Shown piece after piece: positions 36,001 through 42,000 of a stretch of DNA of 64,000 nt. The stretch comes from Escherichia coli (GTDB taxonomy: Bacteria; Pseudomonadota; Gammaproteobacteria; Enterobacterales; Enterobacteriaceae), in assembly GCF_003018255.1 (NCBI RefSeq), contig NZ_CP027440.1; one strand, 5' to 3'. The position numbers are program-made. Within the stretch, counting starts at the first letter, position 1; each line of letters opens with the position of its first letter.

Positions 36001-39000
36001 GTTCCCGAATGAGCACTTCCTGTGAAGCGGCTGGATGCCCGAACGATTCAGGATTTTTTCAACCCGCGTCTGGTGATTCTGGCGGTTAACTTCCTCGCTG
36101 CGCTTCCGGCCCTCAGCCAGTTGCCATTCCAGCCACTCGTCGGTCGTCCGGAACGGTGCTGTAACGTGCGGTGGAACCAGACGGCGCACCCGTTCAAGAA
36201 TCCCTCCTGTCGAAATGTTTTTCATGGCTGATTACCCCCTGAAACCCGGCGGAATTTCGGTGTCCGGTTCAGAAATGTGATTCACGCAACGCAGGCTGAC
36301 TGCGCCAGCCTTCGGCAGCGCCCACGGATTTTCGAAATTCCTGTTCGGGCCAAAAAACGTCGATGCCTGCTGAACAAATTCAGTTCCCACTTTCCCGGTA
36401 GCCTCCAGGTATCTTGCGTAACGCCTCACGCCATCCAGCACGACATCCGGTGACACCCCTTCGCGTAATCTGGCCCTCCAGGCATTGAACGCGGATTTCT
36501 TCGGGTTTGACCCTGCCCGATGCGGATATTCACGCCAGACCCGTTCGAACACGTCAGGATAATCAACTCGTCCCGCAGACGGTCCCGGCATCGCCCGGGT
36601 TAACCCAATCGGCTTCCCGCTCATCGCGGAATCGGCTTCAGGCTGCTGCGGTTGGTGTTGTTGCTCCGGTTCGACGTGCAGCACCTGCTGCACACAACGC
36701 CCGGAATCTGCTTCCGGTGTCATGCCAGCTGGTCCTGGACGTTCAGTCAGAACGGGACAAGAATCCACCAGTGGGTCCGTGGCGATTTTTTCGCCATGGA
36801 CCAGAAGGGTTTTATCTCTTTCCTGTTCCTGTTCCTGTTCTTGTTCTTGGCTTGAAAGGGGCTCTGAAGGGGCTTCAATTTTCCGACATGATTCACGTCT
36901 GACATCCAGGTGGAAATCATCCTTATATCTATCATAAAAGGATGATAAAAAAGGATTTTCCAGCAACGCGGAATATTCATTTCTTACCCCAGCACAACGG
37001 TTATCGCCTGGTTTCAGCGCTTCACCAACCTGCCATGCTGCCATTTCATGCACCCATACAACCTCAGAATCATGGTCATAGCTGCAAAAACCAGCCTCGC
37101 AAGCCATTTGAAGCCCCTTAGAAGCCCCTTCAGGATCAAGTCCGGTTTCGTGAGCAATGTACAAAACAGGCAGGTAATAAAGGCCCAGCATATTGGAATG
37201 AGGCGAGGTCATCATATACAACGCCACTACCATACATTCCGGACCAGACTTCCTTAGTTTTCGCCCTGTATCGCCTAACCAGAACTGAGGTGAAATTGTT
37301 GCGTAATTACGCATAGTCCCCTCGCATACAAGATTTACTCCATACCGCAGACGGTCCCGGTATCTCCCGGGTTAACCCAATCGGCTTCAGGCTGCTGCGG
37401 TTGGTGTGACTGCACATTGGTGTGACTGCACATCTTCACAGACGGTCCCGGTATCTCCGGGTTAACCCAATCGGCTTCAGGCTGCTGCGGTTGGTGTTGT
37501 TGCTGGCGAAATTCTTCCAGATGTGGCAGAATTATTCCCGTGTATTGCTCCATGCCCTGCCTGAATATCAAATATTCATCAGGATTTGCTCAGAACGTCC
37601 GGCCCCAACCGGACGTTTTTTATTTGCATGAACGTTAATGGCATGGTTGAACGCCCGGCTGATCGGACTGATATCAGATGCCATCTGGAACGCACATAAA
37701 ATCGCCGCAATGTATCGCCAGTCGGTACGACTGACCTTCGATTCATGGCAGCCAATCATCTTCGCCAGTCCCCTTTGCGTCAGAGCTGACAGGTTGATAA
37801 GTAAATCCGTTTCAGCGCGATCGATATCGCGCTGCGACAGTTTGCTGTAACTTGTTTGTGACATTTCTTATGATTCCAAATAGTGAATAGTTAGTTGAAA
37901 GGTATGCGTGGAAACGCATATGGCCTTAGTTGGTCAGATATCTTGGGGCTCGCTTTTCAGCGACGTAGGACGAATGTCCATTGTGAAAAGAGCAGTGTTA
38001 ATTGAGCTTATCGTTGACGATCAGGATTCGCTACATTGCGTAACCATTCGGCGGTAAATTTGCCATCAGATGCATTGGCGAGAATTTCCGAATAGTTGGT
38101 TTTCATCGTGTATTCGGTGCGAGGTAACGCTCCGTTTTTAACCCACTTATGAATTGCAACATTTGACAACCCGCATAAACGGGCAGCGACTGTTTGACCA
38201 CCAACAGCTTTTACTGCGAATTGTATCGGATTCATACTGCTATCCATTAATTTAGTTAACTTCGAGTTAATGTTAACTATTAGCTGACAGTTATGTCAAC
38301 TATGTTTGATAATTAACGTATGGTTAAAAAAGATGAACTAAAAGAAGCGTTCTCAAAGAGACTACTACAGGCATTATTAGATGCAGGTGTGGGCGGACGC
38401 GGTCAGGCTAAGCGGATTCAGAATGCAATGAAACTGCGAGGCATTGATATCTCTGAACCGGGGATCTGGAAATGGCTTAATTCTGCATCAATTCCAGAAA
38501 AAACAAGTATTTTGGCACTTAGTGACTGGCTTTCCGTGAAGCCGGAGTGGTTGGAGTATGGCAGTAACGAGCCATCCGTAAAACAGCGACCTTCTATTCC
38601 AAACGAATCAGAATGGGGTTCCCTTGAAACTTGGGACAGAAATACACCACTACGAGATGATGAAGTTGAGGTGCCATATCTGAAAGACATTGAGTTTGCA
38701 TGCGGTGACGGAAGAGTTCATTGCGAAGATCATAATGGTTTTAAATTACGCTTCTCAAAAGCAACCTTGCGCCGTGTCGGAGCTAACAGTGATGGTTCTG
38801 GTGTGCTTTGTTTTCCGGCTACTGGTGATAGCATGGAACCCGTGATACCAGATGGAACAACAATCGCAGTAGACACAAACAACAAACGTATTGTTGACGG
38901 CAAACTCTACGCCATCGCACAGCCTGGTGTCGGTGATGAAAAACTGAAGCGTATAAAGCTATTGTACAGACGCCCCGGTGGAAAACTAATCATACGCAGT

Positions 39001-42000
39001 TATAACAGTGAAGAGTACCCTGACGAAGAAGCAGATACTCAAAGCGTGGAGATTATCGGAAAAGTTTTCTGGTATTCAGTTCTGCTTTAGCCCTCTCCCC
39101 CGGCCTCAGAGCCGGGTTTTTTATTAACCCAGCTAGCCAAAACTCATCTATCCTAGCTTCTATACCCCTTCATACTTGATAACCGTCGCTCACCGAACAA
39201 GCAATAATAATTAACTAAAAATCAAAAACATAGAATGCCTCCACAATAATTTTAACTTTGAGTTATTGACTAACACTAACCAACGGTTAATAATCATTTT
39301 ACCAACAGGTCACCGATAACAACGCGGTCCCAATTGGAAAGCTCTTTAAACAACGTCGAACACTCGACTACGTGGCTGCAAAGCCAGATCGCCCAACCGC
39401 ATAAGCTGTCGGGTGCAATGCCGAAGCAATCATCTCAGGGGAGGCTTCGAGATTGCATCGCCAAAGTTTATTCGGGAGAAATCTATGTCCAGAAAAACAG
39501 AATTTAAAGGCACCGCAGCTTCCCGCCGCAGAGCACACCGGGCTGAGCTTCAGAGTCTGGAGGCATCAAGCGCTGATAAACTGCACCGCCCCACACCTTC
39601 ACGGGTGTACTTACAGTGCAAACGCAAAGCCGCAATGCGAGCTGAAGTAGTCACGATAACGACATTAACCAGAAAATATGAAGGCTCTACTTGTCTTCCA
39701 AACACTGCACTTTACGCAGCTGGCTATCGCAAATCCGGAACAATAACAGCGAGGTGATTGATGACCACGCCTTCAGTTTTGCCGCAAAAATTATGGCGTC
39801 CGCTTGCAGAGATTAAAAACTTCGTTGAAAAAATGCCTGACGGCGTTCGCCTTACGGAAGTTACTAAAAAAGTTAAGACATTTGCCGAACTGTCAGGAAA
39901 GGAGAGAAACCAGCTCATAGATTTTATCGATAAACGGGAAAGCATCATTGTATTTAAGGTCAGAAAAGAAGGTTCTGGTAACGGAGTAACCTTTTTCCGC
40001 CACAAAAAATATGGATATCCCAAGCGGGAAGGAAACGTCACAATCATTAAGGACCTTCAATCAAAATTATGTACCAGATGCGGGCAGACAAAATCAGTCG
40101 ATGATTTTTATTCAGATGCCAGCAAACGTGACGGGAGAGCCATTTATTGCAAGAAGTGCGAATCTGCGATGAAACGCTCACGCAGAGAATGCAACAAATT
40201 AATTCTGCAACAACAGGAACCTGAAATGAATAACCTAAAAGCAGTTTCACCTTCACCAGAAATACTCAGAAAGCAGGCGGAAGAATTGCTGAAAGCCGCC
40301 GAAATTGCGGAGAAAAAACGCCAGGAAGATGATGTATTCAACAAAAAACTTGCGCCCTTAAAACTTGAAATTCTTCAGGCCGCCGGAAAAATGCAGCTTA
40401 AACTGGACGAATTCATCGACTGTATGGATGAAATGAATAAAGCAGTTCAGAAGCTTAAAGAGCTGACCGCCTGATATTAATAAATTGCAACTACCGGAGT
40501 TAACTATGAACGAAACAGAACTGAAGCACATTATCGCCCTGCTTCTGGAAGATGCCAGACAGGTTTATCGACTTAGCCCAAACTCCGCAACGCAGGAACG
40601 CATCCGGATGGCAGAAAAAGCGCTGAAACAGGAGAGTGAAAATAACATATCCGAAGTTAGCGCGAATGGTGAAAATGAAGCAATAGAAATAAACAGCAAT
40701 ATCAGCGACGGCGTAATAGCTTCATCCCACAAGACAATTCTCATGGGCGCACGACTTCTGGAGGTGATTACGAGTGAGCTTGAAAAGAACGGTATCAAGC
40801 CCACCCCTTGTTATTTAGAGTGTGTGTTAAATGTTATTGCTTACTCGATGTTCCGTCGGTGACAGATGAAAGTTTTCGATCAAGGAATGTTTCAAGTGCA
40901 TCGTAAATAATGGAAATCGCCCCAGACGCCTGAGTGACAACCCCGCTGCAACATCCATGTATCAATATCCTCTTTGGCGGACATCGGTTTGCCGATTGCT
41001 GATGTCCGCCCTTTTTAAAAGTGAATTTTATGATGCGGTGAATGCGGCTATGCGCACGCGGAACAGTTAAACCGACAGGATGTCACGGAAAATCATCATC
41101 CCCTGCTCCGGCGTTAATTGTTAACTGGTTAACGTCACCTGGAGGCACCAGGCACCGCATCAACAAAGTTCATTTGTGAAAATGGAGATAATTATGATTG
41201 CTCATCACTTCGGAACTGATGAAATACCACGTCAGTGCGTGACACCTGGCGATTATGTTCTTCATGAAGGCCGCACATATATCGCTTCAGCAAACAATAT
41301 TGAAAAGAGAAAACTCTATATTCGTAGCCTGACTACAAAAACATGCATTACCGACTGCATGATTAAAGTTTTCATCGGGCGCGATGGCTTACCTGTAAAA
41401 GCAGAGTAGTTGTGACGAGTAATAAAATACACCTTCCATATCTGTAACAGACAAACCGAAATAAAAACCACATTAATTATCAATCACGGGAAAATCAAAA
41501 TGAAAGAACTTGCGCAAAATGAAATTTTTTCCGAAACCAGTCCTGATGCAATAAATGAACTCAAAGAAATTGCAGAACGCATCAGTAAAATATGCAAAAA
41601 ACACAAAATCGACTTTGTATTTTCTTTTTCAGTGCTTACAGAAGTTGGAAATAACGAATATAAAGACAGTCGCTTTGTTTCCTTCGGTTTATATTGCGAA
41701 ACCACCAGCCCATATATTCATGCTGCATCTGAAATTGTCGACAGTCATATTGATCCACAAAGAATTCAGGAACTGACCCTGGCACTTCAACTTCTCAGAG
41801 AAAATGGCGAATGCAACTGCTCTGACTGCCAGCATGAAAAGAAAAAAACAACTCACAAAACAACAAACCAGGCAACCTTACACTGAAATAAAAAATCCGG
41901 CAGCGCAGGCTACCGGACTCCCCCCTGCGTCACTGTATTCGGAGAAATCAGACAAAGGGCCGCTAATTCTAATCCAGCCAGAGGTTTAAATACAATGAGC

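Follow-up and report, generated by a model that had tools for sequence, protein, structure and literature searches.

Predicted operators of a lambdoid immunity switch in an Escherichia coli prophage related to Shigella phage POCJ13

Genes of the immunity region

The window considered here is a 64,000-bp (64-kb) stretch of Escherichia coli contig NZ_CP027440.1. It included the lambdoid immunity region of a Shiga-toxin-type prophage, in which cII and cro occupied the minus strand while cI and N were located on the plus strand. The following genes and terminator-like structure were delineated:

37568-37864, minus strand: cII-like activator gene (Pfam Phage_CII, E=1.1e-25)
38008-38235, minus strand: cro-like gene (weak YdaS/P22_Cro-like HTH matches)
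38320-39090, plus strand: cI repressor gene, 256 aa (Peptidase_S24, E=3.9e-16)
39099-39116, plus strand: hairpin resembling an intrinsic terminator, 3' of cI
39485-39757, plus strand: N antiterminator gene, PL-driven (Pfam N_peptide, E=7.7e-26)

The immunity region differed at a single base in 1,601 from that of the Shigella Stx1 phage POCJ13 and was 99.8 % identical to that of 75/02 Stx. E. coli prophages with an immunity region of this type were rare, being present in 13 out of 5,426 complete genomes. Induction of POC-J13 is known to require RecA (PMC4193171), and no earlier description of the POCJ13 or 75/02 operators, or of the TTAAC-N5-GTTAA motif, was found in the open-access literature.

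Relatives were gathered by scanning viral contigs with the N-terminal domain of cI, which yielded about 40 non-redundant loci (64-100 % identical). A protein word-index search with the 99 N-terminal residues of cI returned nine proteins, mostly fragments; loci L002-L004 served as leads. Cro orthologues accompanied cI in every relative. The open reading frame of the cro-like gene reached an upstream ATG at 38247; the conserved start was 38235 (MNPIQ...), at the equivalent of which all Cro relatives began (63-78 % identical).

Recurrence of the dyad motif in the window

The original prediction held that a half-site consensus, TTAAC-N5-GTTAA, recurs at OR and OL. Recurrence was confirmed by a formal scan of the 64 kb: two copies were perfect, against an expectation of 0.05, and none of 100 shuffled sequences reached two. 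Matches with at most one mismatch amounted to seven (1.6 expected), of which four were situated within OR or OL; two one-mismatch copies were encountered at PL. At up to two mismatches, 33 matches were found against 23.8 expected, which was no significant window-wide enrichment, and the signal was thus carried by the best sites only. This lack of enrichment would favor a reading in which the dyads bind no protein and are palindromes arisen by chance where intergenic DNA is rich in AT, or by-products of promoter-hexamer conservation. Two perfect matches of ten specified bases already argue against such a reading, which is very unlikely in view of the comparisons presented below.

A position matrix was trained exclusively on relatives that were at most 75 % identical in the cI N-terminal domain. 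With this relatives-only matrix, six OR/OL positions ranked first in the window with scores from 16.6 down to 11.35, followed by the next match at 9.6; recovery of the OR and OL sites alone likewise contradicts a chance origin. The one-mismatch matches at 3515, 30817 and 62713 displayed sub-background scores with the same matrix and were taken as chance occurrences. Among the ten half-sites, T at position 2, A at position 3 and C at position 5 were invariant (10/10) and A at position 4 was nearly so (9/10), while positions 1, 6 and 7 were more variable.

Sites and promoters at OR

Three sites, one overlapping candidate and two promoters were distinguished between cro and cI:

38256-38270, no strand: OR1, TTAACTTCGAGTTAA, perfect 6-3-6 dyad at -64 from the cI ATG
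38270-38299, minus strand: predicted PR, with -35 TTGACA (38299-38294), 18-bp spacer and -10 TAACAT (38275-38270); 10/12 in the consensus scan
38273-38287, no strand: alternative lineage-specific candidate site, TTAACTATTAGCTGA, overlapping OR2 (matrix score 11.4)
38280-38294, no strand: OR2, TTAGCTGACAGTTAT, two mismatches, 24 bp from OR1, position -40 of the relatives
38284-38313, plus strand: predicted PRM, with -35 CTGACA, 18-bp spacer and -10 GATAAT; 10/12 in the consensus scan
38313-38327, no strand: OR3, TTAACGTATGGTTAA, perfect dyad centered on the cI ATG (motif scan)

The perfect dyad OR1 was announced in the original prediction, and both its sequence and its coordinates proved exact. 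It covers roughly positions -7 to +8 relative to the predicted PR, transcription from which is expected to begin near 38263 on the minus strand, and every relative had it as a perfect dyad at an unchanged distance from the cI ATG. The three OR centers were found at 38263, 38287 and 38320 (24 and 33 bp apart), the last one coinciding with the first base of the cI ATG; OR3 was kept at -7 from this codon in all relatives. A half-site TTAAC or TTAAT, located 9 bp from OR1 on the cro-proximal side, was at least 90 % conserved in the relatives.

Another PR candidate, TTAACA-N16-TAAATT, would place OR1 exactly in the spacer. It was rejected in favor of TTGACA-N18-TAACAT because the latter has a -10-like hexamer kept in all relatives and matches the layout of phage 933W. 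The hexamer at this position reads TAACCT, TAATCT, TATTCT or TATTAT in relatives, with T1, A2 and T6 retained. As a predicted -10, the TAACAT of the window is weak. The PRM -10 was conserved as GATAAT or GATACT. Transcription from PRM is predicted to start at or beside the A of the cI ATG and cI mRNA to be leaderless or near-leaderless.

OR2 is placed in the PR spacer, where it overlaps the PRM -35. The corresponding position reads TTAACTGACAGTTAT in relatives; OR2 was weakened in the lineage of the window, where it carries TTAGC; the mismatch affects half-site position 4, a critical one in 933W. Its score was the third best with the relatives-only matrix. Since the overlapping candidate at 38273-38287 scored similarly, close to the 11.35 of OR1, this mismatch leaves the exact position and strength of OR2 uncertain. 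The operators could accordingly be real while departing in register or number from a model of five 15-bp sites: OR2 might be 38273-38287, the lone half-site 38247-38251 might extend OR1, or some sites might be read chiefly by Cro and not by cI. Besides the candidate's score and the altered OR2, the conserved half-site next to OR1 and the self-palindromic nature of GTTAAC, which makes alternative registers possible, point in this direction. Such a departure is nevertheless unlikely. By positional homology OR2 lies at -40 in all relatives, the OR regions of which lacked a counterpart of 38273-38287, and the 24 bp separating OR1 from OR2 equal the spacing at OL and in 933W. The right half of the candidate displays two mismatches at the critical positions 2-5, and it is therefore judged less likely than 38280-38294, which is retained as OR2 hereafter.

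Sites and promoter at OL

Two further sites were clustered on the promoter preceding N:

39252-39266, no strand: OL2, TTAACTTTGAGTTAT, one mismatch, its final base being the first T of the PL -35
39266-39294, plus strand: PL, with TTGACT, 17-bp spacer and AATAAT (consensus scan; kept in relatives)
39276-39290, no strand: OL1, CTAACCAACGGTTAA, one mismatch, in the PL spacer and overlapping the -10

Related copies had been noted at OL and were indeed present at these two positions. They had also been described as flanking a promoter. The promoter itself was recovered, with transcription expected to start near 39301, but its two sites do not flank it as a whole: OL2 abuts the -35 while OL1 lies inside the spacer. 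Of all positions in the window, OL1 scored highest with the relatives-only matrix; near OL, no third site rose above background with this matrix. The initial inventory therefore comprised three of the five sites (OR1, OL1 and OL2), the perfect OR3 and the weaker OR2 having been missed.

Conservation among relatives

Throughout the about 40 loci, motif matches with at most one mismatch fell at -64, -40 and -7 from the cI ATG, and 35 loci with cI DNA-binding domains 64-75 % identical retained the sites at these three positions. The downstream pair was located anywhere from +923 to +2908, its two sites being constantly 24 bp apart; OL2 was present again in all relatives, invariably at this distance from OL1. 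Stray matches were limited to four in about 250 kb. Half-site columns displayed entropies of 0.05-0.10 bit, while central bases ranged from 0.14 to 0.83 and flanks from 0.44 to 0.70; for OL2, the respective values were 0.10 bit for half-sites and 0.83 for central bases. Among loci with an identical cI N-terminal domain, OL varied at the central bases and between the two sites, and nowhere else. Conservation is less independent at OR than at OL, because the relatives resemble one another fairly closely over the whole of OR.

Promoter constraint could account for part of this pattern, since OL2 runs into the PL -35 and OL1 into the PL -10 by their inner ends, and OR3 borders directly on the PRM -10. 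The outer half-sites of OR1, OR3 and OL2, however, lie outside the hexamers and were invariant in relatives while adjacent bases varied, and the 24-bp pair was retained at varying distances from cI; neither is expected of chance palindromes or of promoter conservation.

The cI repressor

Residues 1-80 of cI form a five-helix HTH domain in the predicted model (pLDDT 89), with a fold like those of TP901-1 CI, P22 c2 and 434 Cro. A Pfam search of this N-terminal domain gave no match, while its profile matched the N-terminal domain of P22 c2 (E=1.4e-5). In the C-terminal part, S171 and K210 were conserved and C128-G129 aligned with the Ala-Gly of relatives. The recognition helix is best explained as lying around residues 45-53 (SEPGIWKWL). 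An apparent five-residue insertion before this helix in the 933W alignment is no oddity, the P22 c2 alignment being ungapped there. Eru4 Stx phages have been reported to carry an "HTH-less" CI clade, to which this N-terminal domain probably belongs. This suggests that a DNA-binding domain homologous to those of 933W and P22 c2 is present in a CI type from which it was said to be missing.

Recognition helix and operator consensus were common to repressors 64-75 % identical in the DNA-binding domain. In loci L048-L050, N-terminal domain and operators were of the same kind although the C-terminal domain of cI was unrelated. Phages phi80 and HK225 offered the converse case, a similar C-terminal domain being combined with another N-terminal domain and other annotated operators. 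As far as these comparisons of loci go, the motif tracks the N-terminal domain of cI and not its C-terminal domain or the flanking cargo.

The assignment of the sites to cI draws on sequence comparison, and Pfam recognizes no DNA-binding domain in this protein; both points would suit a motif read by some other factor, be it a host protein or an antirepressor-linked or CII-type regulator. Such a reader is most improbable, given a confident HTH fold related to the P22 c2, TP901-1 CI and 933W cI domains, the co-occurrence of the motif with precisely this domain, and a site layout equal to the one proven by experiment for 933W cI.

A predicted lambdoid switch

Three related dyads thus separate divergent cro (to 38235) and cI (from 38320), the same sites are clustered again on a promoter 5' of the N_peptide gene, and the repressor combines an HTH domain with a LexA-like self-cleaving S24 domain. 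The five dyads are very probably the operators of a lambdoid switch with the architecture of 933W and a different sequence specificity. The attribution of the half-sites to the prophage repressor, already put forward in the original prediction, is sustained by the gene context (S24 repressor, Cro-like protein, CII and N) and the overlap with promoter hexamers, as well as by the comparative evidence and a one-to-one architectural match to the 933W operators.

A cI dimer would read sites of 15 bp whose two halves, (T)TAAC(T/C), mirror each other across a central base pair. In a lysogen, repressor bound to OR1 and OR2 would block PR, and repressor bound to OL1 and OL2 would block PL. Occlusion of both promoters should silence cro, the replication genes and N, and with N silenced the late genes would be silent too, including stx where the phage is converting. 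At high repressor levels, occupancy of OR3, which covers the PRM start together with the cI ATG, would stop the production of cI, while OR2 may modulate PRM through its overlap with the -35. The Cro-like protein is expected to act on the same sites. During the SOS response, the repressor would be lost through RecA-stimulated self-cleavage of its S24 domain.

The motif had also been proposed for typing prophage immunity. It can serve as a marker of an immunity module defined by the N-terminal domain and not of a single cI sequence cluster. Consensus and helix being common to repressors 64-75 % identical, even with unrelated C-terminal domains, the immunity group marked by the motif may be wider than the one delimited by the POCJ13 cI sequence. 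N-terminal domain, Cro and TTAAC-N5-GTTAA operators could, somewhat tentatively, be regarded as a portable immunity module, a reading that takes in the link to the Eru4 "HTH-less" CI; the combination occurred with at least two C-terminal domains that are unrelated to each other. Phages with seemingly different cI types would then be homoimmune.

The predicted operator map (five sites, three promoters) applies to POCJ13 and 75/02, Stx1-converting phages whose spread has reached Shigella flexneri and S. sonnei and in which repressor occupancy would keep the toxin genes silent, and to the few E. coli prophages of this type; it enables reporter, footprint and immunity experiments. On the tentative module reading, Shigella Stx1 phages would have a 933W-style switch with a two-site OL, which may be easily induced. 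The switch is of a known kind and introduces no new principle; the outcome is a sound, ordinary annotation result.

Comparison with known systems

Operators of P22 are 18 bp long with TTAAG-type half-sites, a layout unlike that of the window. Among solved structures, P22 c2 (PDB 1ADR, 2R1J, 3JXB) is the closest to the N-terminal domain in sequence and has the same five-helix fold; the two align without gaps from helix 2 across the turn and helix 3, but identity is only about 22 %. The cI of Yersinia phage YP3 (49 % identical overall) was uninformative for footprinting, its N-terminal domain being different and its intergenic region devoid of the motif.

Lambda resembles the window in its divergent PRM and PR with three operators, in the position of the PL operators upstream of N and in its HTH-S24 repressor inactivated through RecA. 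It differs in its 17-bp sites, three OL sites, OL3-OR3 looping and unrelated specificity.

Phages phi80 and HK225 share the general lambdoid OR/OL organisation, and the C-terminal oligomerisation and S24 cleavage domain of their cI is 70-72 % identical; the core AAC-N5-GTT occurs in phi80 operators as well. Their N-terminal domain is different, their annotated operators are 19 bp long (AATCAACA..TGTTGATT) with three sites at OL, and the TTAAC-N5-GTTAA pattern was absent from these operators. With the C-terminal domain alone in common and differing operators, the window does not belong to the phi80 immunity group.

The Stx2 phage 933W matched the window in layout. In a 933W-type record, whose depositor's annotation supplied part of the operator and promoter features compared here, 15-bp sites oR1, oR2 and oR3 occupy 1438-1452, 1462-1476 and 1494-1508, and the cI ATG is at 1501; oR3 is likewise centered on its own cI ATG, spacings are 24 and 32 bp compared with 24 and 33 bp in the window, OR1 is equivalent in position to oR1, and PR and PRM are similarly placed. 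OL carries no annotation in this record and was read directly from the sequence: it displays the same order of site, -35, 9 bp, site and -10, with sites 24 bp apart. The 933W sites are symmetric and 15 bp long, three at OR and two at OL (PMC3317979; PMC5977221), OL3 being absent (PMC5977221). Half-site positions 2-5 are conserved, position 1 is loose and position 6 is T or C (PMC3317979; PMC5977221). The sites of the window are also 15 bp long, symmetric about a central base pair and conserved at positions 2-5; in both phages A and C occupy positions 4-5 and position 6 is preferably T or C.

The cI N-terminal domains are homologous (33 % identity, E=1e-13), K46 of 933W corresponding to K51 in the window. 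The C-terminal domains, in contrast, are unrelated, that of the window being phi80-like, and the reported non-cooperative binding and occupancy order of 933W are therefore not transferable to this cI. The original prediction had called for comparison with known immunity groups, and the layout of 933W was matched while the specificities of 933W and phi80 were not. The half-site is CGAAC/CGTAC in 933W (outer bases CGA/CGT) and TTAAC in the window (outer bases TTA), and no TTAAC-N5-GTTAA site with at most one mismatch was found in 933W-type loci. S41 and K42, which start the recognition helix of 933W, have been modelled as readers of half-site positions 2-3 (PMC3317979). These are the very positions at which the half-sites differ, and E46 and P47 occupy the place of S41 and K42 in the cI of the window. 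From the differing half-sites, an immunity different from that of 933W (heteroimmunity) is predicted.

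Organization of the immunity region

The lambdoid immunity region occupied 37.5-40.5 kb of the window, in the orientation opposite to the lambda map, and comprised the following features.

37568-37864, minus strand, CII homologue
38008-38235/38247, minus strand, gene for a Cro-like HTH protein
38299-38270, minus strand, predicted PR (TTGACA-N18-TAACAT), on the same plan as in 933W
38284-38313, predicted PRM (CTGACA-N18-GATAAT), OR3 following immediately
38320-39090, plus strand, cI repressor of 256 aa with a Peptidase_S24 domain
39099-39116, terminator-like hairpin after cI
39266-39294, plus strand, strong promoter-like site, PL (TTGACT-N17-AATAAT)
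39485-39757, plus strand, N antiterminator gene

Segment 37900-39500 differed by one base from the Shigella flexneri Stx1 phage POCJ13, which displayed the same five operator sites, and shared 99.8 % identity with phage 75/02 Stx of S. sonnei. The immunity region was carried by 13 out of 5,426 complete E. coli genomes. The integrase/recombination arm (39500-47579) was 99.2-99.4 % identical to both phages, this likeness stopping near 47,579, whereas the late/structural region (1-25,000) reached only 93-94 % with its best matches, Stx2a-type and other Stx phages; the prophage is thus a mosaic.

A 238-aa ORF immediately 3' of N (39758-40474) displayed a Cys-rich middle segment (CTRCG...CKKCE) and matched no Pfam family. 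Between cII and a replication-region gene lay a direct repeat of ~60 bp (41 nt exact, 90-bp spacing; 37348-37407 and 37439-37497), also found in POCJ13 and in loci L008-L015; iterons and coding repeats within a small ORF are both possibilities.

Predicted operator sites in the window

The original prediction placed operator half-sites of consensus TTAAC-N5-GTTAA at OR and OL, and its three quoted sequences were indeed present where it had located them. In a formal scan the motif recurred, with two perfect copies in 64 kb against 0.05 expected (0 out of 100 shuffles reached two). Seven matches were found with at most one mismatch (1.6 expected), four of them at 38256, 38313, 39252 and 39276; with up to two mismatches, 33 were found against 23.8 expected and significance was lost. 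The second perfect copy, OR3 (38313-38327, TTAACGTATGGTTAA), has the cI ATG (38320) at its centre and had been overlooked. OR2 (38280-38294, TTAGCTGACAGTTAT) carried two mismatches and lay 24 bp centre-to-centre from OR1 (38256-38270), which is also the spacing of the OL pair (OL2, 39252-39266; OL1, 39276-39290). The three sites first proposed were therefore retained in a total of five, and the sequence evidence supports their reading as operators at OR and OL.

All ten half-sites displayed T at position 2, A at position 3 and C at position 5, and nine displayed A at position 4, where OR2 of the window lineage has G. Position 1 was T, A or C (7, 2 and 1 half-sites), and position 6 was T, C or G (6, 3 and 1).

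Conservation among related loci

A scan of viral contigs with cI residues 1-91 gathered 43 loci, with N-terminal domains 99-100 % identical to the query in eight and 64-75 % identical in 35; their OR regions were of 17 distinct kinds. In ~40 non-redundant 6-kb loci, matches with at most one mismatch fell at -64/-63, -40/-39 and -7 from the cI ATG and almost nowhere else, only four stray hits occurring in ~250 kb. The downstream (OL) pair was spaced by exactly 24 bp in every case, and its distance from cI ranged from +923 to +2908 owing to differing cargo genes between cI and PL.

A symmetric weight matrix was derived from 20 distinct sites, exclusively from relatives at most 75 % identical, and the window was scanned blind. 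The six best of ~64,000 positions were 39276, 38313, 38280, 39252, 38273 and 38256 (scores 16.6 to 11.35), the seventh scoring only 9.6. Candidate 38273-38287, which overlaps OR2 and scores similarly, was without counterpart in relatives. Another stretch, 3515-3529 (TTAACTTCGCGTCAA), begins with the same nine bases as OR1 but belongs to the late region; it scored at background with this matrix and is probably a chance match.

Column entropy among unique sequences (bit)
Sites; half-site; central five bases; flanks/spacers
OL; 0.10; 0.83; 0.70
OR1 and OR2; 0.05; 0.14; 0.46
OR3; 0.05; 0.40; 0.44

Where loci shared an identical N-terminal domain, OL varied solely at the central bases and in the spacer between the sites.

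A lone half-site-like TTAAT (38247-38251), without partner half-site, was found 9 bp from OR1 towards cro; relatives displayed TTAAC there, at least 90 % conserved. It may provide an auxiliary contact or belong to the cro leader. In many of the relatives L016-L043, a conserved TAATAACC preceded OL2 by ~19 bp and may be one half of a third OL site; the window had no counterpart at this position.

Repressor and Cro

The repressor is itself a mosaic, as residues 67-256 matched the repressors of phi80 and HK225 at 70-72 % identity and residues 1-83 were related to the 933W cI N-terminal domain (33 % identity). In loci L048-L050 (3001-3741), this N-terminal domain, its recognition helix (SEPGIWKWLN), cro and the operator set occurred with an unrelated S24 C-terminal domain, a natural domain swap which, judged by sequence, makes the immunity module portable. 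Conversely, phi80 and HK225 share the C-terminal domain and have a different N-terminal domain; their annotated 19-bp operators differ and the five-site pattern was absent from both. By these comparisons, the operator motif tracks the DNA-binding domain of cI.

The first 91 residues of cI (38320-38583 encoding residues 1-88) matched no Pfam family with the E-value cut-off relaxed to 10; 933W cI, by contrast, scored as HTH_3. A profile of the domain matched the P22 c2 DNA-binding domain (E=1.4e-5), ungapped across helix 2, turn and helix 3, and also TP901-1 CI. AlphaFold models displayed five helices (2-21, 29-39, 46-53, 61-71 and 75-80; pLDDT 89 and pTM 0.79 for the domain alone). The best Foldseek matches in the PDB were TP901-1 CI (TM 0.67-0.74, rmsd 2.2-2.4 A), followed by P22 c2, 434 Cro and lambda cI; the E-values were no better than 0.01-0.4, a usual range for a domain this small. 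The models confidently indicate a five-helix HTH missed by Pfam. A preprint on Stx-phage regulatory regions types POCJ13 and 75/02 as 'Eru4' and describes an Eru4-linked CI clade that 'lacks the HTH domain' per Pfam, its regulatory function being given as unknown. This clade, as described there, is probably the cI type of the window, and its reported lack of an HTH probably reflects the blindness of Pfam to this domain.

Every relative encoded a Cro orthologue (63-78 % identical) starting with MNP. The longest cro ORF of the window begins at 38247, the ATG used in the POCJ13 annotation. Every relative, however, starts at the equivalent of 38235, which is taken as the true start; the upstream ATG appears lineage-specific and is probably unused.

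Proposed switch and use of the motif

In the proposed mechanism, cI dimers would block PR at OR1 and OR2 and PL at OL1 and OL2; OR3, on the PRM start, would mediate negative autoregulation of cI, and Cro would act through the same sites. RecA-stimulated self-cleavage of cI would lift repression. S171 and K210 of cI were conserved, and C128-G129 aligned with Ala-Gly in relatives; mitomycin C induction of phage POC-J13 depends on recA (PMC4193171). The operator map should help annotation and experimental work on Stx1 phages of Shigella and E. coli. The motif, initially proposed for typing, does serve as a marker, but of an N-terminal-domain module spanning repressors that would fall into separate sequence clusters.

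Comparison with known immunity types

The operators of Stx2 phage 933W are 15 bp long and symmetric about a central pair; three OR and two OL sites occur naturally, OL3 being absent. Positions 2-5 are conserved, with A and C invariant at 4-5, position 1 is of no importance and, at position 6, seven of ten half-sites have T and three have C (PMC3317979, PMC5977221). A 933W-type record (L006, 1438-1508), on whose depositor's feature table our comparison partly rests, annotates 15-bp oR1 (CGTACTTTCAGTACG), oR2 (TGAACTGAAAGTTTT) and oR3 (CGTACTCATGGTTCA), with centre-to-centre distances of 24 and 32 bp and with the cI ATG in the middle of oR3. There, the PR spacer contains oR2, the PR -10 is closely followed by oR1, and PRM stops just before oR3. 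OR of the window followed this plan, OR2 lying within the PR spacer and OR1 extending from about -7 to +8. Relatives displayed TAACCT, TAATCT, TATTCT or TATTAT at the PR -10, always keeping T1, A2 and T6. As the predicted PRM directly abuts OR3, a leaderless or near-leaderless cI message is expected. Upstream of N, the 933W-type record (phi345) displayed in succession CGTACCAATAGTTCT, TGATAATGT, CGAACTATTGGTTCA and TTATTAT, its order being a site, a -35 starting on the last base of that site and, after a gap of 9 bp, a second site whose end is overlapped by a -10. OL of the window (TTAACTTTGAGTTAT, TGACTAACA, CTAACCAACGGTTAA and TAAT) displayed the same geometry.

The sites had been taken to define the immunity specificity of the prophage, and the set differed from those of both 933W and phi80. 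Operator arms were TTAACT..AGTTAA in the window, CGAACT..AGTTCG in the 933W type (L006, 1438-1508) and AATCAACA..TGTTGATT in phi80 (L051, 2757-2832). An AAC-N5-GTT core was common to phi80, 933W and OR of the window. Half-site positions 1-3 were TTA in the window versus CGA/CGT in 933W, for which S41 and K42 are the modelled readers of positions 2-3 and K46 was another residue examined by mutation (PMC3317979); the aligned residues of the window repressor are E46, P47 and K51. This is consistent with an altered specificity on a conserved scaffold. Being like that of phi80 and not that of 933W, the C-terminal domain offers no basis for carrying over the cooperativity behaviour of 933W. From sequence comparison, the operators of the window would represent a new, uncharacterised specificity, unsurprising in principle, within a known kind of switch, that of 933W architecture.
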